A stretch of 64,000 nt of DNA from a virus: the IMG/VR virus record IMGVR_UViG_3300027771_000013, positions 2,931 to 66,930 of that record; one strand, 5' to 3'. Positions 1-44,635 of this stretch are shown here, piece by piece (the stretch's first letter is position 1; each line of letters begins with the position of its first letter). Below the pieces are notes generated by a model. It was not told the origin of the DNA and did no database searches. It saw nothing but the letters and a program-made list of their open reading frames with translations. Made by a program: the position numbers and the translations under genes.

Positions 1-134
1 ATAACTTTATTGTTTTTTTCCCACAATAATTGCCCATTTTTAACTAATATTTTTAAGCTGTAATTTTCATGCACTGTTTCAAACAAAGTACTGTCAGCAA
101 CACTTTCGTATTTTTTATCTGTAGCTGCGTCCAT

Positions 135-518
135 TTAAAAAGCCCACGTAGTTGAGTCAAAGATAGTATTGTCGTCAAATACAGGCAGTGTTGCTTTTAA
201 GCTTGTTGTATACGCATGTAAATTTAAAGACCGTGTACCTCTAGCTACTAAAACAATGTCGTACAGTTCTTGTAATTGCGGTTTAGTCAACGTTAGTAAA
301 GTGTTATCTGATAGCGTCCAATCTAACGTTACAATGTTTAATGAATCCCACAACAATAATGCATTGCTCATACGAGATTCTGCTTTTTCGTTGCAATCAA
401 CTGTCACTGTTCCTTCACTAAAAGTAATTTCAACAGGGGTAGTTTCTTTATCATCTCTAATTTTATTAAGGAGGTTTCTTTGCTCCACTACTTTAGCGGC
501 ATTTAAACGTAAATTCAT
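135..518 (-). CDS. DUF4376-like tail fibre accessory/assembly protein
   Basis: 127 aa with a 'DWTLSDNTLLTLTKPQL' motif typical of DUF4376 proteins; last gene of the tail-fibre cluster. Confidence 0.6.
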   Translation of the reverse strand: MNLRLNAAKVVEQRNLLNKIRDDKETTPVEITFSEGTVTVDCNEKAESRMSNALLLWDSLNIVTLDWTLSDNTLLTLTKPQLQELYDIVLVARGTRSLNLHAYTTSLKATLPVFDDNTIFDSTTWAF

Positions 519-922
519 ACTGCAGGGACCTCAATAGTCACGGGTAAATACAAAGGATGGCTAAGTTCAAGTATATAGTTACCTACTAAATCGGCTGTAA
601 AAGTAATTGATCCATCGTATTCTTCTTCTGTTTCGCCCAACACTGTTAATACAGTACCTTCAGGCAAAAAAGATAAAGAAAAACAATCTTCCCCATCTGC
701 TGTAATTGACAGTTTATTAAAAATATAAGGGATGTCTTCTTTACTGACTACTTCAGTCAAACTGTCGTTTAAACGATCCTTTGAAGTGTATGCACCATCA
801 AAAGTTGCTCTGCCTTCATCTATATTGTTAACTGGGTTACTTGCATCACCATCTGCTACCCATAATAATTGTTTTGTCGTAGTAGAAAAAACACTCATTT
901 TTTTATTGTTGTGCAATGACAT
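515..922 (-). CDS. tail-fibre-associated hypothetical protein
   Basis: Start re-called to the ATG at 922 (TAATG overlap with the upstream stop); C-terminal beta-rich 'GSITFTADLVGNYILELSHPLYLP'. Confidence 0.6.
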   Translation of the reverse strand: MSLHNNKKMSVFSTTTKQLLWVADGDASNPVNNIDEGRATFDGAYTSKDRLNDSLTEVVSKEDIPYIFNKLSITADGEDCFSLSFLPEGTVLTVLGETEEEYDGSITFTADLVGNYILELSHPLYLPVTIEVPAV

Positions 923-1272
923 TATTTTTTGCCTCCCATAAATATGCCTGTGCCTGCATTCCATGTTGCATAGTGATCACCATATCCACCATTAAAGCCA
1001 CTTGCTTTAGAGCCTGACCAAGTATCATGAACTTTTACAGCCCATCGAAAACGTATTTGACTTTTGTTTTCACACTCAGCCAAACTAAAAGTTGTCCATT
1101 CACTGCCTTTTAAGTTTACATACTCAAACTGGTCTCCACCGCATGAATAACCGCTACCAACAGTGCCCACTTCCTTAACTACTTTTTGATCTCGAACAAT
1201 CCATTGGTTGAGGGCTTGATCGTAATCTTCTAAATATAATATTACTTGTATTGCTTCAGTTTGACTTGCCAT
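922..1272 (-). CDS. hypothetical protein, resembles a detached C-terminal tip domain of the tail fibre
   Basis: 116 aa, 23 nt downstream of the fibre stop; ends 'IFMGGKK' like the C-termini of J-like tail tip proteins. Confidence 0.5.
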   Translation of the reverse strand: MASQTEAIQVILYLEDYDQALNQWIVRDQKVVKEVGTVGSGYSCGGDQFEYVNLKGSEWTTFSLAECENKSQIRFRWAVKVHDTWSGSKASGFNGGYGDHYATWNAGTGIFMGGKK

Positions 1273-1295
1273 AAAGATCTCTTAATAGTTTTTTA

Positions 1296-4200
1296 TCACA
1301 TTCCCGGACTTCGATACCCGTACGCTTTTCCAAATACATCGAAAGTAAATTGAATAGCAAAAGATGTTGATTCATGTGCATCACTAAAATCCAACGATGC
1401 TGTTGTACCAATATCCCATTCCACGGTATTACCGTTTAGCTCTCTTACTCGTTGTTCACTTTGCCCAATAGTTGTGATTACTTGAGGCACAAAAATAGAG
1501 TTATCGGCTATTTCTAACGTATCGACAGTTAGTTTAGCGATATAAGTAGTTTTATTTTCAGGCGTAATTTGGCCTATAAAAGGTGGGGTGCGATCAAAAA
1601 CAACGTTGTCAACAATTGCTGTTGAACTAACAGTGTAAAAACTACTGTCAACAAAAAATACTAAATTAACAACAGTTTCTGTTGTGTGGATTAAAACATC
1701 GTTGTGATAGTAATAAATTTTATTATCTTTATAAGCTACCGCAAACGTATCATCTACAGCTACTGTAACAAATACCTGACTATTAGTGACTGGGCTTCTT
1801 AATGGAGAACTATTTTCAAAAATTTTTCCTTGTTCTCCATTTATATACCAACAATGATCAATACCCTCATAGCTTAGGTTACTGCTTGGGTCTGCGTTTA
1901 ACCCAAGCATGTAACTTCCTGCGATTCTTTTTGTTTTAAACTTTACGTAACAACCTTTTTCATAAGAGTAATCACTGTACGCTTGTGCGTTCCACCCGTT
2001 TGTGCCACTTTTTGTAATAACGCCATTGTCATCAACAATTACGCCGCCCAATGCATCGGAAGACGATGTAGTCCAAGCAATACTTCCTGCGTCAGAACCT
2101 TGATCACCTTGATCACCTTGTATAATAAATTCTGTAACTGTAGACCAACCTGAGTTACTCCAATTACCAAAGTTAACGCTATACTTAGTCTCAGACCTAT
2201 ACGTAATCTTACCTGTTTCAAAATAAGCAATATCTGCCCAACCAAAAGGAACCGTTTCTGTAGTTCCGTTAAACGCTCCTCCTGTTGGAGTGTTAGGAGC
2301 TGCGCTTCCAATTGTTACGTTTTTATACACATAAGATATATAAGAGCCATCGTTACCATTAAAGTAATCAACGTTAAATTCAGGGGTTACCCCGTCAGAG
2401 ATAAGAACAGTATTGTCTGCCCCGTCATTTACAGTGACTGTTCCGTTACCGTTATCTAGTACTGTAGGTATAGGCGCGTTACCACCATCTGATATAGTTA
2501 TTGAACCGTTTTGCCCAGTTATAGTGTAAGAACCCCCTCCAATATCAGCTACTGTAGGAATGTCTCCTGTGTCTCCTTTAACACCTTGTATAAGTGACCA
2601 AGTATAATCACCAGGAGTATTTGATTCTGCATCGGTTGTTTTATTGTAAGCCAACCCTATGTAAGGTTTTCCAATAGGGCTGTCGTTTAATCCAGTACCT
2701 ACGTTATCGTCGGCATATTTTATCCATGTGTATACAGGATCGCCTTGTGCGCCTTTTACTAATACCCAACTATAATCACTGTAGGTTGTACTATCAGTTT
2801 CAGTAGTATCAGCATACGTACCTAAATACGTTGCGTTTGCAAAAATAGAAGTATTAAAATTTACGCTACCATCGGCTGAAGTCGCCCAAGCTGTATGAAA
2901 GTAAGCTGAATCACCCTGTACAGAGAATCCTCGATATCCTCGTGGTCCTTCAGGGCCTTTTATTAAAGACCAATTCCACGACTCACTGTCTTCCGATGCA
3001 TCAGCTTCTGTTTCATCAGTGTACGTACCTATATACGTTGCATCTGTCGCACTTGTTGTACTAAAATCATCACCAGTAGCACTTGTGGCATACGCAACAT
3101 GAAAGTACATTGATGTTCCATGTACAACTGTACCAGGATCTCCTTTTGGGCCTTGAATTAAAGACCACGTATAATCAGCAGCATTAGTTGATTCATTAGC
3201 AGTTGATTTATTGTACGCCAGCCCTATCCAAAATTTGCCAGTAGGTAAATCAGCAAGCCCAGTGCCAGAGGCATCATCGCCGTATTTAATCCAAGTATAA
3301 AGTGAGTTGCCGTCTGGCCCTCTTACTCCAACGTTACCTGTAGGCGCAAACATTACACTGTCAAAAGTGTATGCGTAACCTGTTGAATGTTGACTACTAT
3401 CAACATAGAGCGTTTGGTCAGGAGCTGTTATCGTAGTGTGTAACAGCGTTTCATTCATATAATAACGCACAACTGAATTATCATATGCAATAGTGAAAAT
3501 ATCATTAACTGAGCGATTTTCTAGCCAGATTCGCTGATCCTCTATATCTGCTAGGTGTGCTCTTTCCGGATTCATTACCCAAAACCCATTTTCAAAAATA
3601 GATAAATTGCCGTCCCAGCGTAGATAAAAAACAAAATCAATCTTGTTATAACTTGCGCCATCAGCAGGATCAGTAGTTAACCCTACCATTATGCTTTTAT
3701 TTATTGTTAAAGAACGAAAGCTCATATAACAAGCGCCTTGATACCCAACAGTGCTGTATGCTTGGGAATCCCAGGCAGGAGGTGTAGGAGGTGTAGGAGG
3801 TGTATTCTCTACAAAAGTTTTTCTAAGTTGCCCTTGATCGTTAACTTCCATTCCATCTAATTGCCAATCTAATTGGCCACCAAGAGCGCCGCCATCTCCA
3901 GTATCGCCTTTAGACCCAACATACTTAACGTACGTTAATGCGCTTGGAATACTGACAGGTACGCTACCAGACCACTCATAAAAATTAACAAACTCATGTC
4001 CTGCAACATAAGAAAAACTTGCATTATCACCAGCAACGCTCGTTGCATAGATAGCAATAACGCCAGAGTCAGTAGGAGTATCTCCGTTGTCACCAATGTA
4101 TTTTACAAAACCAGAATCAAATACATCATCCCCTATAGTAGGTGCTACGCCTGTGTACTCATAGTATTTAATAAACTTTAAATTTACTGAAGGAGTAAAA

Positions 4201-7200
4201 CTTGCATTAAGCCCACTTACATTTTCAGCGTAAGCAATAATTAAACTTGAGCTTGTACCGTTGTCTCCTCTAATTTTTGCCCAAGTGTAATCTGCTGCAG
4301 TGGCAGAATCTGTTATTTCGTCATCAGTGTAGCTACCAATGTAAGTAGCGCCTGCAGGAGATTGATTAAAGTTTGCGCCTGCATCACTAGTTCCGTAAGC
4401 TAAATGTAAATACGCACTTACGCCTGGATTACCATCAGAGTATTCAATACCTTTTTCAGGCACAAACTTAGCAGCTGCACCATATGTATATGACGCAGCA
4501 TTACCAGCTTTTGTGCCTGATCTTACGTATAAATCTCCGACAGTAAATGCATCTTGCCAAGAACTTGACCCATCGACACTGTACTGCAATTTAACAGATG
4601 TGCCATTAACTCCGGGAGTAGGCGCAAAATAATCTACGCCAAGTTCTGGCATAGCGCCATCAGCAGGAAGCGAAAATACATGCACTTCGTAAAATACGCC
4701 ACCATCATTACTTGATGACCATATACTAATTTCATTAGCGCCAGCAATTAAGTTAGTTGCCGTAAACGCGTAAAATTGTGTAACTTCATCAGGTCCTGAC
4801 ATTGTGCCTAAATCAACGCTGTTTAAGCCAACATGAATATCCCCTTCTGCGTCACGCGCTTTAACTTTTATTAAGCACTTTCCACTAATAGCAGAAGTAA
4901 AAGTTAATTTATCTCCGCCCGCATAATTTGTGTTTGTTTGAAAAAAATTAGCGCCTTTCCATGAAAATATAGAAGGATCTACTGCGTCAACACCATCAGC
5001 ACCATCATTAATAATAATTGATTGTCCATCATTAAACGTAACTGTTGTTACGCCGTTTGCAGTTTCCGTTGCAGATAAAAGAACGCTAGTGCCTTCAACA
5101 CCCGCTCTTACTTTAGTCAAGGTTTGTTCTTTAGTAATACTAAAAGCAACGCCAGAAGCACGCTTTCCTGTAATAGTGTATGTCACAGAAGCAACATCAG
5201 TTGTCATATTAGTATGCTCACTAACTAAAGCAGCATTAGCCCCTGATCCAGTAATAGCGCTGCCTAAAGCAATGCCTGTTGGAACGGCAGAGATTGTGTA
5301 ATGACTTTTAGCCGATCCTACGCCGTCATAATCTAGCTCATTGACACCTTCATACACTCTAATTTCTGTGCCTGAATTGGCATAACTACTTACAACACCC
5401 GTGTCATTTGCAGGAATTGCATGCGCTTCATTTGCTAAAACAATCGTTAATGCTGATTCAACTTCTTTAGTAATTTCTAAGTTTTTAATCAGTAAAGGAC
5501 GCGTACCAAGATCGCTCCAATTTAATATCTGGGCACTAACAACTACTGCGCCAGCGGGAACAACATAATCGTATTCAACAGTTGTCCATGAATCGATGAC
5601 GCTTGCGTTAGCAATAATTTGTGTGTACCCAGGCACGCCAGGATTATTACTTAGTCCTTTTACATCAGGCAGTGATGCGTCTTGTGTTGTTTCTAAATAA
5701 ATCTTGTCACTGGGTAACGCTACATTGTCTTGGATCATACGTAAGTACAATCCACCGCTACCCGTTTCGCCGTCAATGTCTGCAACAGTTTTATAACTAA
5801 ACCGTATTTTGTAAGTTTGATTTTCTTGTACTTTAAAAGCAGGAAAAACAACCGCAAGACTACCGTCTGTATCACTCTTTAACACAAGCGCATTTTCTGT
5901 AGCGTCGTAAGAAATATTATCGCGTGTTGCGCTTCTACTGCCTTGTGCACGATCGACCCATTGCGCCGAACTAAAGCCACTCTCACCTTGTACACCTGGC
6001 TTAAGGCCAAAAATTGTAAACGTATCAGTATCTAAAATAGCCGCATTATTGTCTTCTGTAAGTTCAACAGTAACAATAACAGGTAAATCACTGTGCGCAT
6101 TAGGCGGTGTATAAGCATAAGTTGCAGAAGTACTGCTGGCTTGCACAGAAACGCCGTTAACTTTAAAAGTGTATTTTGCAACGCCTACAACGTTAACTGG
6201 AGTAGCTGTTATTGTAAAAGCTGCGCTAGGTACGGGCGTAGTGCCATCAGCTGCATAAGTGATTGCTTGTTTAGGCGAAGTCAAAGAAACACTTCTAGCG
6301 TTACTAACAGTACCGTCAGTTCCGACAAAACGAACAAACGTTGCAGCAGTTACTAGCGCATCAGATAAAGCAGGTACATCATCTACCCATTCAACAAAAC
6401 TTACCCAGACTTGATCATCATTATGAGCAAAAGAAGTTTGGCCTACAACGCCACTACCATCTTTAGAATAAACAGCTACAACACCAGAGTTAACAGCAGG
6501 GTCACCGTCTTCCCCGATAAATCGTACGTATCCGCCGGCATAAACACTATCGGATATGTCATTAACAGCTGCTCCAGTGGACTCAACATACTTAATGAAT
6601 TTTAAAGTACCTTGAGTAAAACTTTTGTCTTGTCCGTTAGTTCCTGAAGCATAAGCAATTTTAACGCTACCTGCGACGCCGGGCGTACCATCATTAATAA
6701 TTATTTCACTGGCATCACTAAACGTAACTACTGTTACGCCATTAGTTGTTGCAGTGTTAGTAATTGTAATGCCTGCAGCGCCGCGCTGACTAAAAATATC
6801 CCAGTACGTGTTGGGGATGTTTGTACCAGTCGGATCAGTATCAGTATCTGTTCCTAAATGCACTAAAATACAAATATAGATTTGGTCGTTAAAAGAAACC
6901 ATATCACCAAGTACATAGTCCAATGCGTCATTGTGTAGACCACGATATGCATTACGTGTAGCAGAATCTTCAGGCAACCCTGTACCGCTTATGTCAGCCC
7001 ACTCTTGAGAAGTATTAGCTATTGAATCCCCAAGAACTCCAGATTCTATCAGAGGAGTAGGTGGAACAAGAACGCCATCGCCATTATAGTATCCGGGAAT
7101 ATAAATACCAATTCCACTGGCTTGTACTACACCGGCTTTATCTATTTGCCAACCAGTTTTAAGCTCATCGTCCCAATCGGTAGACGAAATTTTATCTTTA

Positions 7201-8204
7201 ATTTTAGCGTTAGTAATAGAAGCGTTGGCAATCTTTCCTTCAGTAATATTTCCGTCAGTTATCATAGCTGCAACAATAGTAGCGTCTGCAATAACAGCTG
7301 AATTAATATATACCGCACCATCGTCAACAATAAAAGGAACTATACTATTATCTGCTGAACCGCCAGGATGCGTTATAGCAAAACGATCTGCATTAACAAT
7401 AAACGTAGATGTGGCAGTTGCATCATATGCTTCACTGTATAAACCAAAGCCTGCGACATTTCCGTCAACATCAAGTTTAACTGAGTATTGAGCAGTTAGA
7501 CCGTCTTCTCCCGCAACAGTATTTTGTAATACTTCTATAGAAGAAAATTGTCCGTTATAACTAGACTGAAGAGTGTTTACGCTTGTCGCTACAGCTTCAT
7601 ACTGCGCTGCTCTTGTAGTAGCTTCTGAAGCTATTACTGCCGTAACTGCAGCGTTTTCATCGCTAACGGCAGAAAGTAATGAAGCCGTAGCAATTTCATA
7701 CGAAGATCGACGGTCAATTTCGTCAACTAAATCAGTTGCTGTTACAGTAATTTGATTAATAGTTGAATTAAGCGATGAAGATAACAAGCTGCTATTAATT
7801 TGCCCTGACAGCAACTGAATCATTTGAGTAGTAGTAGGAATAGTTGTTGCTACAGCAGGTCCAATTAGCTCGCCTCTTGTGCCAATAACTGAATGCACTT
7901 CTACCCAGTAATACCAAGTTTCTGGTAAATACGCTTCGGCCCCATTTTCTTCGGCTGCTGTTATTTGATCAAAATAAGTATTGCCAGTAACTACTGCTAG
8001 ATTAGTTTTTAAAAGCTCATCATTAATAGCACTGCGATAAAGCACTGTGTACGCCACAGCTTCAGGATTACTCGCTGAGTAATCCCATTCAATTCTAATA
8101 CCTCCTAGTACAGGAGTAGCACTAATTCCTAGTGGATTGCTTGGATCTCCCGGTTGAATAACATTAGAGCTGTAACCTGACCCAGTACCACAATATAAAA
8201 CCAT
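1296..8204 (-). CDS. large tail fibre / host-specificity protein (2302 aa)
   Basis: DUF1983/lambda-J-like segment (YSVKLDVDGNVAGFGL...FIVNADRFAI...PFIVDDGAVYINSAVI), short G-x-y collagen linkers, repeated YTWIKY/YxHxAY modules, two lectin-like repeats. Confidence 0.85.
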   Translation of the reverse strand: MVLYCGTGSGYSSNVIQPGDPSNPLGISATPVLGGIRIEWDYSASNPEAVAYTVLYRSAINDELLKTNLAVVTGNTYFDQITAAEENGAEAYLPETWYYWVEVHSVIGTRGELIGPAVATTIPTTTQMIQLLSGQINSSLLSSSLNSTINQITVTATDLVDEIDRRSSYEIATASLLSAVSDENAAVTAVIASEATTRAAQYEAVATSVNTLQSSYNGQFSSIEVLQNTVAGEDGLTAQYSVKLDVDGNVAGFGLYSEAYDATATSTFIVNADRFAITHPGGSADNSIVPFIVDDGAVYINSAVIADATIVAAMITDGNITEGKIANASITNAKIKDKISSTDWDDELKTGWQIDKAGVVQASGIGIYIPGYYNGDGVLVPPTPLIESGVLGDSIANTSQEWADISGTGLPEDSATRNAYRGLHNDALDYVLGDMVSFNDQIYICILVHLGTDTDTDPTGTNIPNTYWDIFSQRGAAGITITNTATTNGVTVVTFSDASEIIINDGTPGVAGSVKIAYASGTNGQDKSFTQGTLKFIKYVESTGAAVNDISDSVYAGGYVRFIGEDGDPAVNSGVVAVYSKDGSGVVGQTSFAHNDDQVWVSFVEWVDDVPALSDALVTAATFVRFVGTDGTVSNARSVSLTSPKQAITYAADGTTPVPSAAFTITATPVNVVGVAKYTFKVNGVSVQASSTSATYAYTPPNAHSDLPVIVTVELTEDNNAAILDTDTFTIFGLKPGVQGESGFSSAQWVDRAQGSRSATRDNISYDATENALVLKSDTDGSLAVVFPAFKVQENQTYKIRFSYKTVADIDGETGSGGLYLRMIQDNVALPSDKIYLETTQDASLPDVKGLSNNPGVPGYTQIIANASVIDSWTTVEYDYVVPAGAVVVSAQILNWSDLGTRPLLIKNLEITKEVESALTIVLANEAHAIPANDTGVVSSYANSGTEIRVYEGVNELDYDGVGSAKSHYTISAVPTGIALGSAITGSGANAALVSEHTNMTTDVASVTYTITGKRASGVAFSITKEQTLTKVRAGVEGTSVLLSATETANGVTTVTFNDGQSIIINDGADGVDAVDPSIFSWKGANFFQTNTNYAGGDKLTFTSAISGKCLIKVKARDAEGDIHVGLNSVDLGTMSGPDEVTQFYAFTATNLIAGANEISIWSSSNDGGVFYEVHVFSLPADGAMPELGVDYFAPTPGVNGTSVKLQYSVDGSSSWQDAFTVGDLYVRSGTKAGNAASYTYGAAAKFVPEKGIEYSDGNPGVSAYLHLAYGTSDAGANFNQSPAGATYIGSYTDDEITDSATAADYTWAKIRGDNGTSSSLIIAYAENVSGLNASFTPSVNLKFIKYYEYTGVAPTIGDDVFDSGFVKYIGDNGDTPTDSGVIAIYATSVAGDNASFSYVAGHEFVNFYEWSGSVPVSIPSALTYVKYVGSKGDTGDGGALGGQLDWQLDGMEVNDQGQLRKTFVENTPPTPPTPPAWDSQAYSTVGYQGACYMSFRSLTINKSIMVGLTTDPADGASYNKIDFVFYLRWDGNLSIFENGFWVMNPERAHLADIEDQRIWLENRSVNDIFTIAYDNSVVRYYMNETLLHTTITAPDQTLYVDSSQHSTGYAYTFDSVMFAPTGNVGVRGPDGNSLYTWIKYGDDASGTGLADLPTGKFWIGLAYNKSTANESTNAADYTWSLIQGPKGDPGTVVHGTSMYFHVAYATSATGDDFSTTSATDATYIGTYTDETEADASEDSESWNWSLIKGPEGPRGYRGFSVQGDSAYFHTAWATSADGSVNFNTSIFANATYLGTYADTTETDSTTYSDYSWVLVKGAQGDPVYTWIKYADDNVGTGLNDSPIGKPYIGLAYNKTTDAESNTPGDYTWSLIQGVKGDTGDIPTVADIGGGSYTITGQNGSITISDGGNAPIPTVLDNGNGTVTVNDGADNTVLISDGVTPEFNVDYFNGNDGSYISYVYKNVTIGSAAPNTPTGGAFNGTTETVPFGWADIAYFETGKITYRSETKYSVNFGNWSNSGWSTVTEFIIQGDQGDQGSDAGSIAWTTSSSDALGGVIVDDNGVITKSGTNGWNAQAYSDYSYEKGCYVKFKTKRIAGSYMLGLNADPSSNLSYEGIDHCWYINGEQGKIFENSSPLRSPVTNSQVFVTVAVDDTFAVAYKDNKIYYYHNDVLIHTTETVVNLVFFVDSSFYTVSSTAIVDNVVFDRTPPFIGQITPENKTTYIAKLTVDTLEIADNSIFVPQVITTIGQSEQRVRELNGNTVEWDIGTTASLDFSDAHESTSFAIQFTFDVFGKAYGYRSPGM
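3777..3803. repeat. 3 x 9-bp tandem repeat (AGGAGGTGT) encoding TPP-TPP-TPP linker
   Basis: Exact triplication read in the sequence. Confidence 0.9.
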
Positions 8205-8235
8205 AACTCACTCACAAATTAAAATCATTTGGAGT

Positions 8236-8263
8236 GTTATACCTAAAGCAAAAATACTTTTCT
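8236..8263 (-). promoter_or_regulatory. candidate late promoter (AGAAAA-N16-TATAAC) for the tail fibre gene
   Basis: Same motif and spacing recur at 37026-37053, 39244-39271 and 43996-44023. Confidence 0.5.
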
Positions 8264-8276
8264 TATCTTTTCTCAT

Positions 8277-8307
8277 GGGGCCTCCGGCCCCTTTTATGCA
8301 AAATTAT
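8277..8307 (+). promoter_or_regulatory. GGA-triloop hairpin element (GGGGCC-TCC-GGCCCC-TTTTATGCAAAA), probable phage promoter for the xis-int-replication operon
   Basis: Perfect 6-bp stem in a divergent intergenic region with no + strand gene upstream; near-identical element at 13828. Confidence 0.55.
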
Positions 8308-8341
8308 AAATACGATTACTAACTTACTTTTAAGGACTTTT

Positions 8342-8563
8342 ATGACCGCTCCTATTACCTCTGATGCTGCTAATTATGTATGGGCATCTCATGTTTATCT
8401 AGATCACCCATTGCCTTTAAACTTTCGAGATTGGAACCAAAGACAACTTGAAGATTACTGCCTGCACAACAGCTGGCTGCGGTTTCATTTTACAAATGGC
8501 AAAGCAGCGTTTAACGCAATTGCTGAACTCGCTGCACTAAAAGTATCTCCCAACCCACAATAA
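8342..8563 (+). CDS. hypothetical protein (73 aa)
   Basis: RBS TAAGGA before the ATG at 8342; first gene of the + strand operon. Confidence 0.65.
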   Translation: MTAPITSDAANYVWASHVYLDHPLPLNFRDWNQRQLEDYCLHNSWLRFHFTNGKAAFNAIAELAALKVSPNPQ

Positions 8564-8594
8564 GCCGTATTATCTTGATTTTAAAGGAATTATT

Positions 8595-8909
8595 ATGCAA
8601 CAAGAATGGATTAACTTAGCCAAATACCTTACCGACGGTGGTTACACAAAAAATCAATTTGAATTTTGGAAACGTCACCGTAAAAACCCTTTAGTACTTG
8701 GCAATCATTACGTATCAGGGTCTAATGGCAGTTCAGTTAACATAAGGAGCATGGATCAATGGTGGAGCGAAGGTGGCCCGTATGTATCGACAATAAACGT
8801 GGAAAGCCGCGCGTCAGAATCTACAAAGGTGGCGGTAAACTTGTCTTCAACAAAACGCTCGATGTCAACATTAACACCAAAAGTGGTATCGCCGAAGCGA
8901 TTAGGCTAA
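8595..8909 (+). CDS. xis: excisionase-like protein (recombination directionality factor)
   Basis: Small basic wHTH-like pattern 'EWINLAKY..GYT...G.HY....VN..MDQW' directly upstream of, and overlapping, the integrase. Confidence 0.65.
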   Translation: MQQEWINLAKYLTDGGYTKNQFEFWKRHRKNPLVLGNHYVSGSNGSSVNIRSMDQWWSEGGPYVSTINVESRASESTKVAVNLSSTKRSMSTLTPKVVSPKRLG

Positions 8910-9913
8910 GAGACGAAGTTAAGCACCGACTTAAGTTTGGTATTGCACTAAGACAAGAAGAAGTTACTCAAGTGCATCTATTTCATATCGCTGCACAAGA
9001 GTACCTCGATGAACTAGGCGGCGCTTATTCCACCCATTTAGACTACGAAGGCATCATTAACGGCTGGTGGTTGCCTGTATTTGGTAAGTGCTTAACCGAA
9101 GAAATTACTACAAAGGAAATCAAAAAAGTATTAGATGCTCGGCAAGTTGCTGGTCGTAAAGTGTCCCGCAAACGTAAAAAGAACGCGTTAATTCCGTTGC
9201 GCGGAATATTTAATCATTTAGACATCAAACCAAACCCTGCTGATTTTCATCTCAAGAAAAGCGACGAAGACCAGAAAAAGCCTGTGGAACGTTATTTACC
9301 CGAAGAGCGCAGTCGTTTGTTGTCTGCGCTTAAAGGTGAGCAGTTAGTTTACTTTGCAATACTCTTGGGTTGTGGACTTAGACCTGCTGGCGAGGTTTTA
9401 GCGCTGCAGTGGAAAGATTATAACGGTAAGCAATTGCACGTCAGCAAGACGATTACACGGCGTCGAATGAAGTATTCAACTAAAACTTACGTATCTCGTA
9501 AAGTTGCTGTGCCTACTTGGGTACAAGAAATACTCAACCAGCACCCTACTCGTTTTAAGAACAGTTATATCTTCTTAAACAAGTTTGATAGTTTTTACTG
9601 TGATGCCGATAATTTCAATAAAGAGTGGAAGCTTGCGCATACGGCTACCGATACTGCGTATCGCGTACCGTATACGTGCCGCCATACACGGGCAGCAGAG
9701 TTATTGTCCATAGGAATTGCACCCGCAGAAGCGGCGAAACAATTAGGCCACTCATTGCAGATGTTTTTAGACACGTATTCAGAATTTATTGACGAATATT
9801 GCTCAGAACAAGACCCTTTGAGGTTTGAAGGCATAGCGCCTCAAATTCAAAAACAGTCCCAAAACAGTCCCAAAACCGAAGTTGTTCCCATTGGGAATAA
9901 AAAAGGAATGTAA
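8759..9913 (+). CDS. int: tyrosine integrase with N-terminal arm-binding domain
   Basis: Catalytic motifs GLRP.GEV (R), YTCRHT (H/Y-x-x-R), QLGH and TY; N-terminal arm-DNA-binding-like region; AAGGAG RBS. Confidence 0.93.
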   Translation: MVERRWPVCIDNKRGKPRVRIYKGGGKLVFNKTLDVNINTKSGIAEAIRLRDEVKHRLKFGIALRQEEVTQVHLFHIAAQEYLDELGGAYSTHLDYEGIINGWWLPVFGKCLTEEITTKEIKKVLDARQVAGRKVSRKRKKNALIPLRGIFNHLDIKPNPADFHLKKSDEDQKKPVERYLPEERSRLLSALKGEQLVYFAILLGCGLRPAGEVLALQWKDYNGKQLHVSKTITRRRMKYSTKTYVSRKVAVPTWVQEILNQHPTRFKNSYIFLNKFDSFYCDADNFNKEWKLAHTATDTAYRVPYTCRHTRAAELLSIGIAPAEAAKQLGHSLQMFLDTYSEFIDEYCSEQDPLRFEGIAPQIQKQSQNSPKTEVVPIGNKKGM

Positions 9914-10137
9914 ATCAACGACTTAGCACTTGACAAATGGCGGACCGGACGGGACTCGAAGCTGCTTTTACCCTTTTCAGCACAGTACAACAAACCTTAA
10001 AAACCCATATATAACAACAGCATAGGCTTCCTGCCCTGTGCTGCAATTTGCTCATTCATTTTCCAATCGTCCCAGAAACAGTTCCAGAAATAACATTCTG
10101 GCCTGTAATTGTGGCCGCTCAAAATTCTTCCAGAAAA
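9850..10137. mobile_element. attP site: arm repeats + IHF site + tRNA-derived core
   Basis: GTCCCAAAA x2 (9856, 9867); GTCCCAGAAA (10069), GTTCCAGAAA (10081), TTCCAGAAA (10128); IHF consensus AATCAAcgacTTA at 9913-9925; core at 9938-9960. Confidence 0.85.
9938..9960 (-). other. att core = 3' end of a tRNA, most likely tRNA-Asp (TTCGAGTCCCGTCCGGTCCGCCA)
   Basis: T-loop TTCGA, T-stem, acceptor 3' strand, G discriminator and CCA; one mismatch to the enterobacterial tRNA-Asp end TTCGAGTCCCGTCCGTTCCGCCA; no 5' tRNA half present. Confidence 0.88.
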
Positions 10138-10184
10138 CTTATTAGGCGCTTGATAGTGTCGCTAACCCAAAAAAAGGAACTCTT

Positions 10185-10676
10185 ATGTTTAAAGATTTAT
10201 CGCAGCTGTGCGAAAACAGCCCTAATTGCCTTAACCAAAAAACCCTAGAAACGCTTTATTGCGAACAATGTACTTATATAGATACCCCAATACAGCTGTG
10301 CGAAGAAGATTACCGCTCAGATGCTCGTTTTGAAAATTACGAATTCGCTGTAGAAACTCCCGTTTCTGAAGCACGCCCCGCACCTGAATTTCTCAAAGCA
10401 GCTGCTGGCCACATGGAAGATCGTGCAACTACGTACGACAACCCAGCTGGTGAACGTTCTATGGCTGCTGCAGTGGCTGCATTTAACGCAGTTACTGGCG
10501 ATGGTGAAATGAACAGTGAAGAACGTGGTTGGATATTCATGACTTTATTAAAAGCTGTACGTACACAACAAGGGGGTTATCGAGAAGATAACTACGAAGA
10601 CGGTGCTGCGTATTTTGCATTAAGTGGTGAAGCCGCTTCAGCTAATCGAGTTGCACCTACTTCTACTCTTTCTTAA
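10185..10676 (+). CDS. DUF6378-like phage protein
   Basis: 'R...YD...ERSM...FN..TG....GW.FM.LLK..R......DNYEDGAAY.AL.GE' pattern. Confidence 0.7.
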   Translation: MFKDLSQLCENSPNCLNQKTLETLYCEQCTYIDTPIQLCEEDYRSDARFENYEFAVETPVSEARPAPEFLKAAAGHMEDRATTYDNPAGERSMAAAVAAFNAVTGDGEMNSEERGWIFMTLLKAVRTQQGGYREDNYEDGAAYFALSGEAASANRVAPTSTLS

Positions 10677-10684
10677 GGATTCTT

Positions 10685-11647
10685 ATGACTGCTTATACAG
10701 GCACAACTAGTGTCCCTTTATCAGTGGCGGTATTCCTAGCTACTGATCATTACGATCACGACCCTAACACTATCTCTGCTACTCGATTATTGAAATCAGT
10801 GCGGCAAACAGTGCTTTCGGCCAGAGTGCCAGAAGAAGAAGCTAATACTGACTTAATAAGCTTATTCAAGTCACGTATTGGAACTGCAATTCATGACGGT
10901 ATTGAAAAAGCCTGGTTAGGTGACTATCAAAACGCTATGCGTCTTTTAGGGCACGCAGACAAAGTAATTCAACGCGTCAAAGTTAACCCAACTGAGGTAG
11001 GGCCTGACGATATACCCATTTACATGGAACAGCGGTACTACAAAACTTTTCAAGGCAAACGTTTATCTGGAAAAGTAGATTTTATCTGTAATGGCCGACT
11101 TGAAGATTTTAAATCAACAGGTACATACACATGGAATGCTGAGAATAAAGATAAAGACTATCAGCTACAAGGCAGTATTTATCGCTGGTTAGCTCCAGAG
11201 GTGATAACTGAAAATGTATTTGCTATTCAATTTTTGTTTACAGATTGGAAACCTGCATTTGCAGCAAATGATCCTAAGTACCCTGCTAGTCCAGTAATGG
11301 AACGTCTAATTCCGCTTATGTCTCTTGAAGAAACTGAACGCTATGTAAGTGAAAAAATAGCGCTCATTAATAAATTAGAGCATGCCGCTGATGAAGACAT
11401 TCCATTGTGTACTGACCATGAATTATGGAGGCGTGCACCTGTATATAAATACTTTAAAAATCCTGCTAAGACTAGTCGCAGTACTAAAAACTTTACTAGC
11501 TCAGCTGAAGCGTACATGCGCCTTCATGAAGACGGCAATGTAGGGATTGTTAAAGAGATACCTGGGAAAGTCATTGCGTGTAACTACTGCAGTGCATATC
11601 CAGTGTGCAAACAAAAAGATTCTTATTTAGCCAATGGCTCACTCTAA
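10685..11647 (+). CDS. PD-(D/E)XK exonuclease, N4 gp42-like
   Basis: GTAIH, EQR, SGKVD, DFKST motifs and C-terminal CxxC; syntenic upstream of primase. Confidence 0.85.
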   Translation: MTAYTGTTSVPLSVAVFLATDHYDHDPNTISATRLLKSVRQTVLSARVPEEEANTDLISLFKSRIGTAIHDGIEKAWLGDYQNAMRLLGHADKVIQRVKVNPTEVGPDDIPIYMEQRYYKTFQGKRLSGKVDFICNGRLEDFKSTGTYTWNAENKDKDYQLQGSIYRWLAPEVITENVFAIQFLFTDWKPAFAANDPKYPASPVMERLIPLMSLEETERYVSEKIALINKLEHAADEDIPLCTDHELWRRAPVYKYFKNPAKTSRSTKNFTSSAEAYMRLHEDGNVGIVKEIPGKVIACNYCSAYPVCKQKDSYLANGSL

Positions 11648-11662
11648 ATTAAGGAAGATTAA

Positions 11663-13816
11663 ATGAACAACCGATTAAAGCCTGTATCAGAGATGGAATT
11701 TCATCCTATACAGGAAAAGTTAGTAAATATTCTTTGTGAAAAAACTCAGAATACCAACCCACTGTTTTTCCGAATCTCAGTGTCATATTACTTTGCAACT
11801 GTCGCTGCAATGATGCGAGCCAATGTAGCTACTTTAGATGGTGGTGATGTACCTATCAACATGTACACCGTAAACCTGTCTACTTCAGGCAGCGGAAAAG
11901 GTGTGTCTACTAACTTTATGGAAGAAAAGATTATTAACCAGTTTGAGCATAATTTTATGCAAACAACTATGCCCTTAATAGCACAACAAAACTTACCTGT
12001 AATTGCCAATCAACGTGCCATTAAAAAAAGCACTGACCCTGACGATGAGCTTGCTCGTTTACAAAATGAGTATGTTGACATAGGTGATTTTGTTTACAGT
12101 TTTGACTCAGGCTCAGCACCTGCAATTAAAGCTGCTCGCCACAAATGCTTATTAGCAAGTGTAGGCTCATTAAACTTACAGATTGATGAGATTGGCTCTA
12201 ATCTAACTGGGAACGTAGATGCGCTTAACGCATTCTTAGAATTATTTGACGTTGGTAAAATCAAAGGGAAATTAACTAAAAACAGTAGTGATAATAAACG
12301 AGTAGAAGAAATTAAAGGGGCTACACCAACTAACATGATGTTATTTGGTACTCCTAGTCGTCTACTTAACGGTGGTAAAGCAGAAGATGAGTTTTACAGT
12401 ATGCTGGACACAGGTTATTCACGCCGCTGTTTCTTTGGTTATGCCAGAGGACACACACGTAACAATAATAAAACGCCCGAAGAAATCCTTAAGCAACGTA
12501 CAAACAATACTACTAGCGCTGATATAGAAGCTATTTCTGACGCTATAGGTAAATTAGCTGACCCAACATATGTTAATAAATCTATAGCTGTTTCTGAACA
12601 AGTAACATTACTACTAATTGAATACCAATTAAATTGCGAGCGATTAGCAGACGAGTTACCTGAACATGAAGAGATGAAAAAAGCAGAGCTATCTCACCGT
12701 TGGTGGAAAGCATTAAAACTTGCTGGAGCTTACGCATTTATTGATGATGCAATTGAATTAACTGAAGATCACATTTATTACGCAATAAAACTAGCCGAAG
12801 AATCAGGTACAGCGTTTGGAAATCTACTTACCCGTGATAGACCTTACGTTAAATTAGCTAAGTATATTGCTAATGTGAACAGAAGCATTACTCAAGCTGA
12901 CTTAGTCGAAGACTTGCCTTTTTACCGTGGAGCAGCATCTCAAAAAACAGAGATGATGCAATTAGCTATTGCTTACGGGTATCAAAACAATATTTTGATT
13001 AAGAAATCTTTTGTAGATGGTATTGAGTTTTTACGTGGAGAGTCTCTCACTGCAACGAACTTAGAGGAAATGCGAGTAAGTTACAGTTCTGATATTGCCA
13101 AGGGCTATAAAAATGAAACTGCTCCTTTTGATCAGTTACATTTACTAACTCAAAGTGCAGGAATGCACTGGGTAAATCATCATTTAGTTAATGGACACCG
13201 AAAAGAAGAAAACGTATTAACTGGTTTTAATATGATAGTTATTGACGTAGATAAAGGCGTAAATTTATCTACTGCTCAAATGCTATTAAAAGATTATAAA
13301 GCGTTGTTTTACACAACAAAGCGACATACAGAAGCAGAACATCGTTTTCGTATTGTTATGCCTATTAATTATGAATTAAAACTAGATGCAAAAGAATACA
13401 AAGAATTTATGAGCAATTTGTTTCAATGGCTTCCTTTTGAAGTTGACGAAGCAACTAATCAACGTGCTAGAAAATGGCTGTCAAATAATGGTCCTTATTA
13501 TTATCAAGATGGCGATGTTTTAGACATCTTACCGTTCATACCTAAAACCAGTAAAAATGAAAAGCTTAAAGAGAAATTTAAAGATCAAAAATCTTTAGAC
13601 AACCTTGAACGCTGGGTCATTAACAACACTGGTGATGGCAATCGCAATAATCAATTACTGCGATACGCCTATGTATTAGTAGACGCAGGCTACGACTTTG
13701 AAGGAATACGTCAACGTGTCACTTCACTAAACGACAAGCTCGTAGACAAACTAGATGAAGCTGAAATATTAGGCACCATTATGGTTACTGTAGGCAAAAA
13801 ACTCTCTTCTATCTAA
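11663..13816 (+). CDS. DNA primase, N4 gp43-like
   Basis: STSGSGKG P-loop, DEIG, VIDVD, TTKRHT...RFR, C-terminal GNRNNQL (PriCT-like). Confidence 0.9.
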   Translation: MNNRLKPVSEMEFHPIQEKLVNILCEKTQNTNPLFFRISVSYYFATVAAMMRANVATLDGGDVPINMYTVNLSTSGSGKGVSTNFMEEKIINQFEHNFMQTTMPLIAQQNLPVIANQRAIKKSTDPDDELARLQNEYVDIGDFVYSFDSGSAPAIKAARHKCLLASVGSLNLQIDEIGSNLTGNVDALNAFLELFDVGKIKGKLTKNSSDNKRVEEIKGATPTNMMLFGTPSRLLNGGKAEDEFYSMLDTGYSRRCFFGYARGHTRNNNKTPEEILKQRTNNTTSADIEAISDAIGKLADPTYVNKSIAVSEQVTLLLIEYQLNCERLADELPEHEEMKKAELSHRWWKALKLAGAYAFIDDAIELTEDHIYYAIKLAEESGTAFGNLLTRDRPYVKLAKYIANVNRSITQADLVEDLPFYRGAASQKTEMMQLAIAYGYQNNILIKKSFVDGIEFLRGESLTATNLEEMRVSYSSDIAKGYKNETAPFDQLHLLTQSAGMHWVNHHLVNGHRKEENVLTGFNMIVIDVDKGVNLSTAQMLLKDYKALFYTTKRHTEAEHRFRIVMPINYELKLDAKEYKEFMSNLFQWLPFEVDEATNQRARKWLSNNGPYYYQDGDVLDILPFIPKTSKNEKLKEKFKDQKSLDNLERWVINNTGDGNRNNQLLRYAYVLVDAGYDFEGIRQRVTSLNDKLVDKLDEAEILGTIMVTVGKKLSSI

Positions 13817-13827: not shown

Positions 13828-13858
13828 GGGGACTCCGTCCCCTTTTTTGCAAAACTAT
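13828..13858 (+). promoter_or_regulatory. GGA-triloop hairpin element (GGGGAC-TCC-GTCCCC-TTTTTTGCAAAA); promoter and/or terminator
   Basis: Perfect stem, same loop and tail as the 8277 element. Confidence 0.55.
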
Positions 13859-16239: not shown

Positions 16240-16428
16240 ATGGGTATCATTAAGGATGCCCTGCAATTTATATTTTCATTTATTGCAGCCGCATTACTTG
16301 TAGCATTAGGCACAGCAATCCTGATATTTGGTGGAGCCATTATGTCTGGCCTTACCCTACTAGCAGGATTGCTGTTTATTATTGTTATTGTGGCTTTTGT
16401 TATTAAAGCAGCGCTATCGGGAGATTAA
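16240..16428 (+). CDS. small two-TM membrane protein
   Basis: 62 aa, two hydrophobic stretches. Confidence 0.65.
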   Translation: MGIIKDALQFIFSFIAAALLVALGTAILIFGGAIMSGLTLLAGLLFIIVIVAFVIKAALSGD

Positions 16429-19400
16429 TCTCCGTCTATAGCGTCAATTAATAACTGCATTGTAATTGCATCGTCCCAGGTATCTATAAGCTCAAACGCA
16501 CCGGCACCAAACGGATTAGCAAGCTTTTCAGTAATGACAGAGTCTAATACACTTTGCATTGCTGGGAAGTAAGCTTCCAACATTGCTAAACCAAACGCTC
16601 TTGCTGGACTTTCTCTAAACAAGTTAAAAATAGTTTTCTGTATACGTATGTAGTATTTAGTAAACCAAATTAACCCAGTGTCATTTAAGTACTGCAATGC
16701 TCTGTGTTGGGGAATATCATAGTTTACAAACGAATCTTGTGCCCTACTCATTGCATCTACTCTTGATAAAGGATTCTTTCTACGAGTAGTAAGATGCTCA
16801 ACTAAAATTAGTCGCCCAATAAAATCACTGTATTGCGTGGCTTTATGCATTACTTTATACGTTACAGTATCATGTGTCATTAAAACGTTTTTAACACCTG
16901 TTTTAATTGCATTGGGAACTAAACGCGTTTTTCTATCAATAGATTCCATTAGTTGGGATTTCATTGAATATGGATCTTCTACAGAATTCACATCTTCTAC
17001 AATAGTTTGATACAAGCCTGCCGAAACCAACTCATGTACTGGGTTCCTTTCTAAAGCGTCTTCAAGACGAACAATACTCTGCTCAACTTCTCTTTTCATG
17101 TCGCCAGCAAAATACCCTGTTTCAACCTTACTTTTTAACGCAAACAAACTTTTTTCGTCTCTCTCATACTTAACTGTATTGATAAAGCCTTTTACATGCC
17201 CAGAAATAATTTTATTTATTGACACACCTGTCCAAGCAAGTAATGTTACATTGCTCGACAAGTTACCAATAAACGTAACTAAGTTTTTAATAACTAAAAT
17301 ATCTTTAACTACGCCTACAATTTCTTGCCAAACATCTTCAGTTTGTCTAATTCGTAATTGAGACACACCTAACCCATTTGCTATACCAATAATGACTTGT
17401 TCACTTATTTTTCGTTGATCTTCTTCTGTAGGCTTCCAAGGAAGCAAACTATTTATTGCATCAGACAATCCTAATGCACGCTTTTTGTACCCATCAGTAA
17501 TTGAATATTTGCGATACCCAAAAGTCATGTTGAACACATCATTTTTAATAAACATGGCATTACCGCCCCAAACGCGTTTTATTTCACGCTTAGTTGCTGT
17601 AGGCATAAGTCTAAATGCTTCCGCAATCTCTGGATCTGAACTGCTTGCACTAAAGTTTATATAGTCTTTAGGATTTTTTACGTAGTCTTCTTCGTACTGT
17701 TTGTGATGCGCATTAACAACTTGATTGTTAATATCTTCAGAGCCTGCCTTATCAAACACATTACTAGCCATTGCTCCCAGTACTTGGTCAATGCGAGTGT
17801 CTGGGTTAAAAATAACTTCTTTAGTAGACTCCAACATAAGTTGACGCCATCCAGTAATATCACCTTTAGGATTAAATATTGGAGCTAGTCTAGTTTCTCT
17901 ATCCGATTGTGGCGTATAGTTTTCAGGTCGTGTCAGTAACGCATTACGTTTATCTTCTTTACGCTTTGTAATACGTGCTGTTTCATTTACATTTATTGTG
18001 CCCAAACTATCTTTGCCCGCTAAACTACCTGCTGAACGTTTTCCTGTAGTAGACATAATTCCACTGACAACTTTAACTAGCCCAAGACCTTTTGCTGTGT
18101 ATAAATACTGTTCTTCGCTAGTAGTGTCATCTTTATCTTTGCCTAACTTACTATCAAAAACTTTAACGTATCCAGCTTTTTCGAGTTGTTCCCCGGTAAC
18201 AGCGTCTGCAATCCTTAAATCAATATTCTGGTCGTATATTTCTTTAACATACCCTTTTCTCATAAGTGTAGGGTCGTTATTAAACGCAGTTGTTAATGCT
18301 TCCTCTTGCATAGCTTGATGCTGTCTTAACGTATACTCTACACCGTTTTCGTTAACTTCTGGACGAGTACGCTCTTGAACAAATAACTCACGCAACGTTT
18401 CTTTTTTCGTTTCTGCTAAATATTTAATAGCGTATAAAGACACCAATGGATTAAGTATTTCAACGGCCACTGCCTGATCTTGTGCAGACACGGTATTTTT
18501 AAATCCAGCTAGCATTGCTATCTGATGTACGTTTTGAGCTTGATTTTCATGCGTATGGGAAGAAACCATATGGTCAGCCAAATCTTTAGCTGCACTTAAA
18601 TACCATAAACGATAAGTACCTGTTAACTGACTTTCCATTTCTTTAATAGCGTTATTCAGTTCTATTCCGTCTTCTGCGAATAAGCTTTCCATTTCAGCTA
18701 TAGTGCGATTAGTAAATAACATTGCTGCGTCAGTACGTAAAAAGTCAGTTACTGCTCTTGATTGCTTGTCCGTCAGTGACGTATACGCAGCTCTTGCTAC
18801 GTTAGCTACCTGTGTTTTTATTGCTTGACGACTTTGAGTATGTCTATTCCCTAAGTTTAACAACGTATGTAATACTTGATTGTTTTCAGTACGCCCTTGC
18901 ATATCAGTCAACATAGACATAAATACGCCTTGTTTACCTTCTGATAATTGATTGCGTACTTTTTTAATTACCTCTATAACTTCTTGGCCTCTGTTTTCTA
19001 AAACCACTTCACCTACTTTGCCCAATGCTTGCACTACAACAGCGTTTGAGTTTTTTATTTTGTCAGACGTCAATGCCTTAACTAAGTTATTTCGTCCTTT
19101 ATTTACCAAAGCCTCTATAGTGTCTTCAGCAGTCTCTGTTACTGTCTTACTTCGCTGTAAACGCAATGCTTCTTTCTTACGCTGTGTGGCTAAAGATCTT
19201 GCAAGCGTAATTAAACGAACATCTTGTGTTTCTGCACGGTTAGTGCGCGTAATTACTCGACGTAAATTAGCCATTAGCCTGGCAATAAGCGCAGCAGCTT
19301 TTTCATACAATGACATTGAAACATCACTGTCTGTTGTTTGTGCAACAGGCAATGCAGCTAAAGCGTTACTTAACGGTTCATACGCTACAGCTAACGCACC

Positions 19401-44494: not shown

Positions 44495-44635
44495 GGCAGT
44501 AACTATCCATGACTTCCTTGTACTTTTCTGATGTTTTAAGAAGTGCCGCTATATAAATACGCTTCTCATACAACATTTTTAAATAGGGGTATGAAACAAC
44601 GTGTACGTTTTTACGGCGCTAATCACCGGATATAA

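Follow-up and report, generated by a model that had tools for sequence, protein, structure and literature searches.

We analyzed a 64,000-nt stretch of viral DNA (here, the window), which corresponds to bases 2931 to 66930 of the linear, 66,930-base IMG/VR record IMGVR_UViG_3300027771_000013, rated ~90% complete. Between positions 8595 and 10137, the window carries a set of elements that resembles a lambda-type site-specific recombination module: an excisionase-like (xis-like) gene (8595-8909, + strand), a tyrosine integrase gene (int; 8759-9913, + strand), and a putative phage attachment site (attP) with a 23-bp core that matches the 3′ end of a tRNA gene. We identify the phage as N4-like (Schitoviridae) from its giant virion RNA polymerase (vRNAP) and its N4-type core gene set. 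The vRNAP, a hallmark of N4-like phages, is encoded by an open reading frame (ORF) of 3,683 amino acids (16425-27476, − strand) that matches PF21867 and, over profile positions 27-3396 of 3406, phrog_2206 (E = 0). The N4-type core genes matched in the window are those for two RNAPII subunits, DNA polymerase, helicase, primase, exonuclease, single-stranded DNA-binding protein (SSB), portal, major head protein, and terminase. The closest cultured relatives are Vibrio N4-like phages, whose primase is 56% identical to that of the window.

The integrase is 384 amino acids long and matches both PF00589 (44.1 bits against a curated cut-off of 27.1, E = 2.5e−11) and phrog_1 (E = 1.2e−38). Across an alignment of 20 sequences (the integrase of the window and 19 relatives with 40-92% identity), residues M1, W6, P7, R208, K242, Y305, R308, H331, and Y340 are invariant. 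Because the first methionine and the active-site residues are invariant in the family, we take the assigned start of int to be genuine and the active site to be complete, in agreement with the original prediction, made from the sequence alone, that the tyrosine integrase is intact. The catalytic set of tyrosine recombinases is R-K-H-R-H/W-Y. Five of these six positions are canonical in the integrase of the window, and Tyr305 occupies the position of the first His throughout the family (roles assigned by eye against this motif). In an AlphaFold2 model of the protein, with a mean predicted local distance difference test score (pLDDT) of 77, an N-terminal unit of three strands (residues 10-33) and a helix (residues 41-59), modeled with pLDDT of 83-91, is followed by a helical core-binding domain and then by a catalytic domain. 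A Foldseek search with this model ranked the Tn1549 integrase first (E = 9.4e−9) and also retrieved full-length lambda integrase (1z1b_A, E = 3.5e−8, 384 columns). The model thus indicates that Int has the three-domain build of lambda Int, including a separate N-terminal arm-binding domain. Among cultured phages, a protein search gave no integrase above 28% identity, and a distant-mode DNA search with positions 8200-10700 gave no match.

The xis-like gene overlaps int by 151 nt. Its predicted product combines a winged-helix domain (residues 1-58) with a disordered tail rich in Ser, Thr, and Lys, which is encoded within the start of int. Two close homologs, and no more, exist as called genes in the protein database; a jackhmmer search over the ORFs of the fetched loci recovered 120 related ORFs. 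In all loci whose coordinates were compared, these ORFs start ~150-170 nt before int and end ~110-160 nt inside it, which bears out the claim that an excisionase-like gene overlaps int. The first ~58 residues are conserved across the family (G36 invariant; G16, Y39, and W56 near-invariant), and the tail, rich in Ser, Thr, Lys, and Arg, keeps its frame open in almost all members despite the overlap. Conservation of the tail must be owed in part to the underlying int frame.

Several lines of comparison connect this family to excisionases. Among 27 aligned relatives, PF06806 (DUF1233, putative excisionase) matches 11, with a best E of 1.4e−6, and HTH_17 (PF12728) matches 6; the family profile matches the PDB entry 2kvv, a "putative excisionase" (E = 0.0034). 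The AlphaFold2 model of the xis-like protein has a strand-helix-helix-hairpin-helix order over residues 1-60 (pLDDT of 86-94) and is disordered beyond. The top VIA fold matches of this model are all excisionases, namely 2kvv (Z = 6.2, root mean square deviation of 2.3 over 58 residues), GIsul2 (8c3t, Z = 5.5), and RdfS (8dgl, Z = 4.6), although Z-scores below 8 are common for unrelated models; P2 Cox and the HK022, Pukovnik, and Tn916 Xis proteins rank lower. The best Foldseek match is again 2kvv (E = 0.59). On the combined evidence, we consider "xis-like" a fair name and infer a function as a recombination directionality factor (RDF).

The attP core (9938-9960, − strand) consists of the last 23 nt, CCA included, of tRNA-Asp(GTC), an exact match that confirms the predicted tRNA 3′ end past int. 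As predicted, the core follows the int stop codon (9911-9913); the gap is 24 nt by our measurement and not 25 nt. The 23-mer is found once in the window when up to 3 mismatches are allowed (none of 100 shuffled sequences had any match) and remains single in the full 66,930-base record when up to 2 are allowed. The window has 7 copies of the motif GTYCCARAA where 1.95 are expected, a count that none of 100 shuffles reached, and four of the seven copies form two tandem pairs, at 9856/9867 and 10069/10081. The first, the putative P-arm pair (9856-9875, + strand), consists of two copies of GTCCCAAAA placed 11 nt apart inside the 3′ coding end of int. The second, the putative P′-arm pair (10069-10089, + strand), consists of GTCCCAGAA and GTTCCAGAA placed 12 nt apart. 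Arm-type repeats are therefore present on both sides of the core, as had been claimed. The positions of both pairs are kept in a sister lineage (lineage 2), which is represented by five IMG/VR contigs from five metagenomes; these contigs have one and the same att region and share ~80% nucleotide identity with the window. A third P′ arm repeat, CTTCCAGAA (10127-10135, + strand), is degenerate, with one mismatch, and is weaker in lineage 2.

Between the int stop codon and the core lies one perfect match to the consensus of integration host factor (IHF), WATCAANNNNTTR (9913-9925, + strand), so that a consensus match for the predicted IHF site does exist. Such perfect matches number 8 in the window on both strands, and the chance of one falling inside the 285-bp attP is ~0.04. 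On the other side of the core, a conserved non-coding block (9961-10065) makes up the proximal part of P′ and may hold sites for accessory proteins; a hairpin (10018-10043) inside it has a fold z-score of −2.18. We took a 46-amino-acid ORF inside attP (9915-10055, − strand) as non-coding, and it has no family match. The phage genes on either side of the site show the window to be in the attP form, as the original prediction held.

The association of this integrase family with tRNA-Asp is also seen in bacterial chromosomes. A scan of species-representative genomes with the int alignment gave 80 bacterial loci, of which the best 20 were checked for tRNAs with ARAGORN. The nearest full-length chromosomal relatives are 44-46% identical and come from metagenome-assembled genomes (MAGs) labeled Pseudohongiellaceae, Pseudomonadales, Nitrosomonadaceae, and Marinagarivorans; short C-terminal pieces with 60-65% identity occur in Oceanicoccus and Porticoccaceae MAGs. 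A tRNA-Asp(GTC) gene lies downstream of int, on the opposite strand, in 9 of the 20 best loci, and in 6 of these nine it is 27-79 nt past the int match; in 8 of the nine, a tRNA-Val gene adjoins tRNA-Asp. Three of the other loci, more distant from the window, adjoin tRNA-His, one adjoins a tmRNA, and seven have no tRNA nearby. In five loci (from Pseudohongiellaceae, Pseudomonadales, Exilibacterium, Cellvibrionaceae, and Porticoccaceae), the tRNA-Asp gene ends in the 23-mer itself, and identity between phage and bacterium stops exactly where the body of the tRNA runs on and the phage P′ arm departs. This is how an int-proximal junction would be expected to look once integration had rebuilt the tRNA. 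Of 75 further loci with int relatives in IMG/VR, 17 have this core, or one nearly identical to it, right after int but no tRNA body, and are other attP forms. Two bacterial loci, in a Nitrosomonadaceae MAG (L010) and on Exilibacterium scaffold 6 (L019), likewise have the exact 23-mer after the integrase and lack a tRNA body; they are either attP-form elements that were binned with the genomes or remnant ends.

The position of the arm repeats recurs in the family as well. We compared the window with 16 related elements, both viral and bacterial, by searching for 8-mers shared across the core. Nine of the 16 have an element-specific 8-mer as a tandem pair with 11- to 12-bp spacing on each side, at about −85 to −34 (the 3′ end of int) and about +82 to +117; most of the remaining elements have a partial arrangement, and one has none. 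The window fits this geometry once the Y/R degeneracy of its motif is allowed. A motif that varies by element in a constant position is expected of arm-type sites that co-vary with the arm-binding domain of the integrase. Our argument for arm sites rests on this repeated geometry and not on the shuffle control, because 19-40% of shuffles passed, any shared 8-mer being sufficient. The tRNA-Asp-associated integrases of islands and prophages of marine gammaproteobacteria (L008, L009, L013, L022, L023, and L027) resemble the module of the window in integrase family, in the presence of an Xis-like partner, and in the tRNA-Asp 3′ core. Unlike the window, which is in the attP state, these elements are integrated, and their flanks lack N4-like genes.

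Both int and the xis-like gene are under purifying selection, with dN/dS values between the window and the sister lineage of 0.135 and 0.20, respectively; the values of the neighboring exonuclease and primase genes are 0.09 and 0.065. In the non-coding DNA, 23 of 23 core positions and 93 of 105 positions of the P′ block are identical between the two lineages, compared with 13 of 24 in the spacer between the int stop codon and the core; the identity at four-fold sites of nearby genes is 0.45-0.77. The GC content of the module (0.42-0.43) matches that of its flanks. The order of tail fiber, xis, int, core, exonuclease, primase, and vRNAP genes is common to the window and the five contigs of the sister lineage, and two Joint Genome Institute (JGI) contigs of 48 and 52 kb have the same layout. 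Moreover, the stretch is present in 20 public sequencing runs from 11 studies, all but two of them labeled marine or seawater, and one of them possibly the source run. A 23-kb Logan contig of that possible source run covers positions 8000-12000, and strains with ~96% identity occur in two other runs. Sequence comparison thus argues that the module is not a chimera, not a separate element, and not a relic.

The genomic slot of the module is also used in other N4-like phages. Among the 80 best N4-like exonuclease loci in IMG/VR (50-85% identity), an integrase ORF lies directly upstream of the exonuclease gene in 8, or in 7 of the 50 with at least 2.4 kb of upstream DNA; the detector was a hidden Markov model of the int family of the window, which very different recombinases may escape. 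Five of the eight loci belong to the sister lineage, two (L194 and L196) are the contigs L147 and L144, and one is L226. The lineage of L147 and L144 (lineage 3) is distant from the window (primase, vRNAP, and integrase 54%, 36%, and 28% identical, respectively). It has its own Xis-like ORF, and GTGGGGGCAT repeats stand on either side of a ~170-bp stretch without a recognizable piece of tRNA. In L226, a core ~25 nt after int is one mismatch away from the 3′ end of tRNA-SeC of an Oceanicoccus MAG. These comparisons point to two further N4-like lineages with other integrase/att cassettes in the same slot. In this fourth N4-like lineage (L226:2100-2520), we also observed AACTGGGA repeats on both sides of the core. 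In L147 (L147:5188-7228 for the cassette region), a serine resolvase gene (PF00239, E = 7.9e−39) is located before the exonuclease gene, on the opposite strand.

From the combination of these elements, we propose that the window carries a functional lambda-type site-specific recombination module in a marine N4-like phage, with tRNA-Asp as its target, and we put the probability of this reading at roughly three in four. In the proposed mechanism, the circularized phage genome would carry the ~285-bp attP (9853-10137). The contig crosses the divergent late/early junction at 44494-44737, as expected of collapsed terminal repeats, and the phage encodes annealing, SSB, and resolvase functions. The N-terminal domain of Int would occupy the arm repeats, and its core-binding and catalytic domains would occupy the 23-bp core. 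Int would then recombine the core with the identical 3′ end of the tRNA-Asp(GTC) gene of the host, likely a marine gammaproteobacterium of the Porticoccaceae, Cellvibrionaceae, or Pseudohongiellaceae kind, and the tRNA would be rebuilt at the int-proximal junction. The winged-helix protein overlapping int would serve as the directionality factor for excision, and host bending proteins such as IHF would probably assist. We infer catalysis, circularization of the genome, the roles of Xis and IHF, and the identity of the host from this arrangement. For stable lysogeny, we see about even odds.

A number of observations weigh against this proposal. Among them are features of the module: the first active-site His of the integrase is replaced by Tyr, though this residue is invariant across the family; the xis-like protein of the window itself has no Pfam family match, and the fold Z-scores of its model are middling; and at the aligned place in the sister lineage, the IHF site has 2 mismatches. 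With a single consensus site that is imperfect in the sister lineage, the claim that integration is IHF-assisted is not supported as it had been put. The others come from searches for the integrated form. The exact P′-arm pattern had no match in the species-representative genomes, the predicted attR pattern (arm pair, gap, and core with tRNA continuation) had none in JGI metagenome contigs, and a looser attR pattern had none in IMG/VR; a core-plus-P′ pattern matched two metagenome contigs, both in the attP form. When 40 proteins of the window were compared by tblastn with the 80 bacterial int loci, no N4-like genes were found within 10 kb of int, and besides int only the xis-like ORF and the DUF6378 ORF had matches. 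A search for the vRNAP that scores E = 0 on the phage itself gave no full-length match in 202, 277, and 251 genomes of the three candidate host families or in 401 genomes sampled from their order, 1,131 host-candidate genomes in all; weak matches to the N-terminal domain of vRNAP within other giant ORFs were all that it returned. The major head protein had no match in five genomes that hold int relatives. Finally, neither PHROGs nor Pfam recognized a CI/Cro-type repressor in 86 ORFs (54 + 32). The sole helix-turn-helix match among the scanned ORFs is a 60-amino-acid HTH_38 ORF (53431-53613), and many small early ORFs match no family.

The Logan contigs of four runs (X1-X4) also show no joint at the core. 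They have unitig breaks and a bump in depth there, as expected of k-mers common to the host tRNA and several attP sites. We do not count this result as evidence against integration, because contigs cannot show rare junctions. One 63-nt Logan contig of run X1 (depth of 9.65, compared with 57 for the phage) shares positions 9923-9954 with one difference, is unrelated leftward, and has an alignment that stops before the end of the core; it could be another attP variant or host-side sequence. The power of all searches for the integrated form is limited, as the host families are candidates only, species are represented by one genome each, many of the genomes are MAGs, and contigs drop rare junctions. 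A candidate N4-like prophage with int and core (G125:C14) was rejected as a different phage with a 4,120-amino-acid protein that is not an RNA polymerase. This 21.5-kb phage contig (L167:3529-19049) is binned with a Porticoccaceae-family genome and has a 32%-identical integrase and a tRNA-Asp core without a tRNA body; its 4,120-amino-acid ORF includes a DNA-methyltransferase segment.

The search for attL/attR junctions at the 23-mer in bacterial genomes and MAGs, which the original prediction had put forward as a check, therefore found none. With no junction and no N4-like prophage in any collection searched, and no CI-type repressor recognized, its claim of a functional temperate phage is not supported as it had been put. 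As for integration in the manner of lambda, the three-domain build of Int and the arm repeats flanking the core stand; of integration itself, no junction was found in the collections searched. Overall, we regard the locus as a well-supported annotation and not as a surprise: its anatomy had been read correctly, and its lifestyle and novelty had been put too boldly.

The same results bear on a different account of how the module is used, in which it integrates the genome in a fraction of infections and the phage is not truly temperate, having no dedicated repressor and forming no stable inducible lysogen, as in the T7-like pelagiphages. The lack of a recognized repressor and of any such prophage in the 1,131 candidate-host genomes or the contig collections is in line with this account, as is the finding that int-bearing pelagiphages of a lytic-type family integrate into tRNA genes (10.1101/410191). 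On the other hand, selection on a dedicated excisionase is best explained by integrated copies that last and are excised later, a repressor could hide among the family-less small ORFs of the early region, and the host genomes sampled, with a single genome for each species, are mostly MAGs, in which prophages are lost. We regard this account as a tentative one that deserves serious consideration, though we would not bet on it.

Other explanations deny the module its proposed function altogether. It could be a passenger that was acquired from a temperate phage by recombination and that does not work in an N4-like background. The dS of int between the window and the sister lineage is 0.53, below that of primase (1.45) and SSB (1.57), and because of this difference the module region must have a history of its own; the closest cultured relative lacks the module, and int is missing from 43 of the 50 related loci of N4-like phages that extend far enough upstream. 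A decaying passenger is hard to reconcile, however, with the low dN/dS of int (0.135) and xis (0.20), with the intact active site, with a core (23/23) and P′ arm (93/105) that are kept next to a spacer that has decayed (13/24), with a GC content that matches the flanks, and with the different cassettes maintained in the same slot elsewhere; we consider this explanation improbable. Still less probable, in our view, is a recombinase that works for the phage's own genome, as Cre-lox does, by resolving multimers or maintaining a plasmid-like prophage, and not by chromosomal insertion. The absence of a chromosomal junction would fit, and in lineage 3 a resolvase adjoins the att region, but a core identical to the 3′ end of a host tRNA, arms in a heterobivalent arrangement, and an excisionase as partner are all characteristic of chromosomal integration, relatives of int adjoin tRNA-Asp in chromosomes, and there is no second core for intramolecular resolution. 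In a linear, ~90% complete metagenome contig in which the module adjoins an unusual − strand tail-fiber block, int and att might be suspected to stem from a chimeric assembly or from a mobile element of independent origin with a second att copy of its own; either had been named as a way for the original prediction to fail. Yet the 23-mer is single in the record at up to 2 mismatches, the gene order is identical in five IMG/VR contigs, in two JGI contigs, and in Logan contigs of other runs, and the slot is shared with two further N4-like lineages, so that we give this suspicion almost no weight.

In addition to the proposed tRNA-Asp module, we considered a bolder conjecture, namely that an entire clade of marine N4-like phages is genuinely temperate, with a fixed integration slot upstream of the exonuclease gene, swapped int/xis/att cassettes (tRNA-Asp in the window, a tRNA-SeC-like core in L226, and another target in L147), and lysogeny without a recognizable CI-type repressor. 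We hold this conjecture to be unlikely at present. If true, it would imply a novel way of silencing a phage that is first transcribed by an injected polymerase.

With the Int/Xis/attP system of lambda, a heterobivalent tyrosine integrase system, the module of the window shares an integrase of three domains whose fold matches that of full-length lambda Int, a short core flanked by arm-type repeats (two in P and two to three in P′), an IHF-consensus site near the core, and a small, predicted winged-helix protein encoded just upstream, which in the window overlaps int. It differs from lambda in the low identity of Int (17-19%), in the use of a tRNA 3′ end in place of the intergenic attB of lambda, in the 151-nt overlap of xis and int, in the Tyr at the first active-site His, in having its best-conserved accessory region on the P′ side, and in lacking a recognized repressor or immunity region.

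N4-like phages are regarded as strictly lytic and, partly on that ground, as candidates for therapy. Nevertheless, integrase-bearing members have been described. An IMG/VR survey (mSystems 2023, PMC10654107) reports 54 N4-like genomes and proviruses with integrase, transposase, or diversity-generating retroelement genes, 14 of them marine, as well as integrated N4-like proviruses in 40 bacterial contigs, mostly of Moraxella. Because such genomes and proviruses are reported there, the general claim of integrase-bearing N4-like phages has already been published, and the novelty assigned to the locus by the original prediction was set too high. The N4-like uncultivated virus genomes of that survey share with the window their phage family, their IMG/VR source, and the claim of lysogeny genes, whereas att sites, arm repeats, an excisionase, and a target tRNA do not appear in the passages of the survey consulted (PMC10654107). 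In the literature on N4-like phages, we found no described attP, judging by titles and abstracts, and no worked-out case concerning integrases, lysogeny, prophages, or tRNA in N4-like phages or Schitoviridae, judging from listings. A close parallel exists in T7-like pelagiphages and cyanopodoviruses, which are described as carrying a tyrosine integrase, an attP just past int, and an 11- to 46-bp core matching host tRNA genes; their integration was shown by polymerase chain reaction and by metagenomic hybrid reads (10.1101/410191). These phages resemble the window phage in being lytic-type podoviruses with an RNA polymerase of their own, and they differ from it in belonging to Autographiviridae, in targeting tRNA-Cys, -Leu, and -Arg, and in having observed junctions, none of which were seen here.

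The locus adds an anatomy that can be tested, consisting of a target tRNA, a core, arm sites, and an excisionase, and several marine lineages keep cassettes in one slot. Should integration be demonstrated, one would have to ask what keeps a phage silent when its RNA polymerase enters the cell by injection, and the result would point to Porticoccaceae- or Cellvibrionaceae-type bacteria as hosts of an abundant, uncultured group of marine phages.

The surroundings of the module differ from those in the nearest cultured relative, in which just three small ORFs separate the DNA polymerase and exonuclease genes. In the window, the same gap contains, in order, a − strand block and then, on the + strand, orf73, the xis-like gene, int, attP, and a DUF6378 ORF. 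The left flank is formed by a tail-fiber gene of the − strand block, which encodes 2,302 amino acids (1296-8204, − strand; phrog_496, PF09327). On the right, the small DUF6378 ORF (10185-10676) lies between attP and the N4-type exonuclease gene (10685-11647, + strand; phrog_2139, E = 2e−124), which is followed by the primase gene (11663-13816, + strand; phrog_2135, E = 0). The − strand block, located between the DNA polymerase gene and the integration module, spans positions 62538-64000 and 1-8204 of the window and bases 1-2930 of the contig, whose ends lie inside it. The block contains tail-fiber genes, small ORFs of membrane-protein appearance, and, by eye, an ORF resembling a methyltransferase; no comparable block exists at this place in the closest cultured relative.

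Upstream of the xis-like gene lies the small conserved orf73 (8342-8563, + strand), which is open in the window and in L004 and has no family match in either Pfam or PHROGs. The + strand module is headed by a GC hairpin, with a stem of 6 bp and a loop of 3 nt, and by TTTTATGCAAAATTAT after it (8277-8307, + strand). This element is conserved in the sister lineage and is a candidate promoter or terminator; because no + strand gene ends there, a promoter element may be the better reading. The loop is reminiscent of the 3-nt loops of the hairpin promoters used by the N4 vRNAP. Under the conjecture of a temperate clade, the conserved 3-nt-loop hairpin (8277-8291), at the head of the orf73-xis-int operon, could tie int expression to the injected polymerase. 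In the window, a GC hairpin with a TCC loop and TTTTWTGCAAAAYTAT after it is present at two places only, here and at 13828-13858, between the primase gene and a Sak4-like gene; a third TCC-loop hairpin lies at 50899-50911, after RNAPII subunit 2. In the divergent region 44480-44760, no hairpin similar to that at 8277 was seen, and a scan of 8100-10300 for sigma-70 promoters and terminators gave nothing above chance.

Outside of the module, giant ORFs of 1,856-3,573 amino acids (L169-L175) in Cellvibrionaceae- and Pseudohongiellaceae-family genomes (G457, G284, G420, G439, G542, and G718) match the vRNAP profile over no more than its N-terminal ~80-640 positions (E = 1e−30 to 1e−6). These partial matches suggest that the N-terminal domain of vRNAP may be common to other giant, possibly injected, proteins. 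In the early region, a 90-amino-acid ORF (47706-47978) has a weak match to a PHROG labeled "toxin" (E = 5.9e−6), and a 267-amino-acid ORF (53949-54752) contains an Nmad5 nucleotide-modification-associated domain (E = 2.3e−6).

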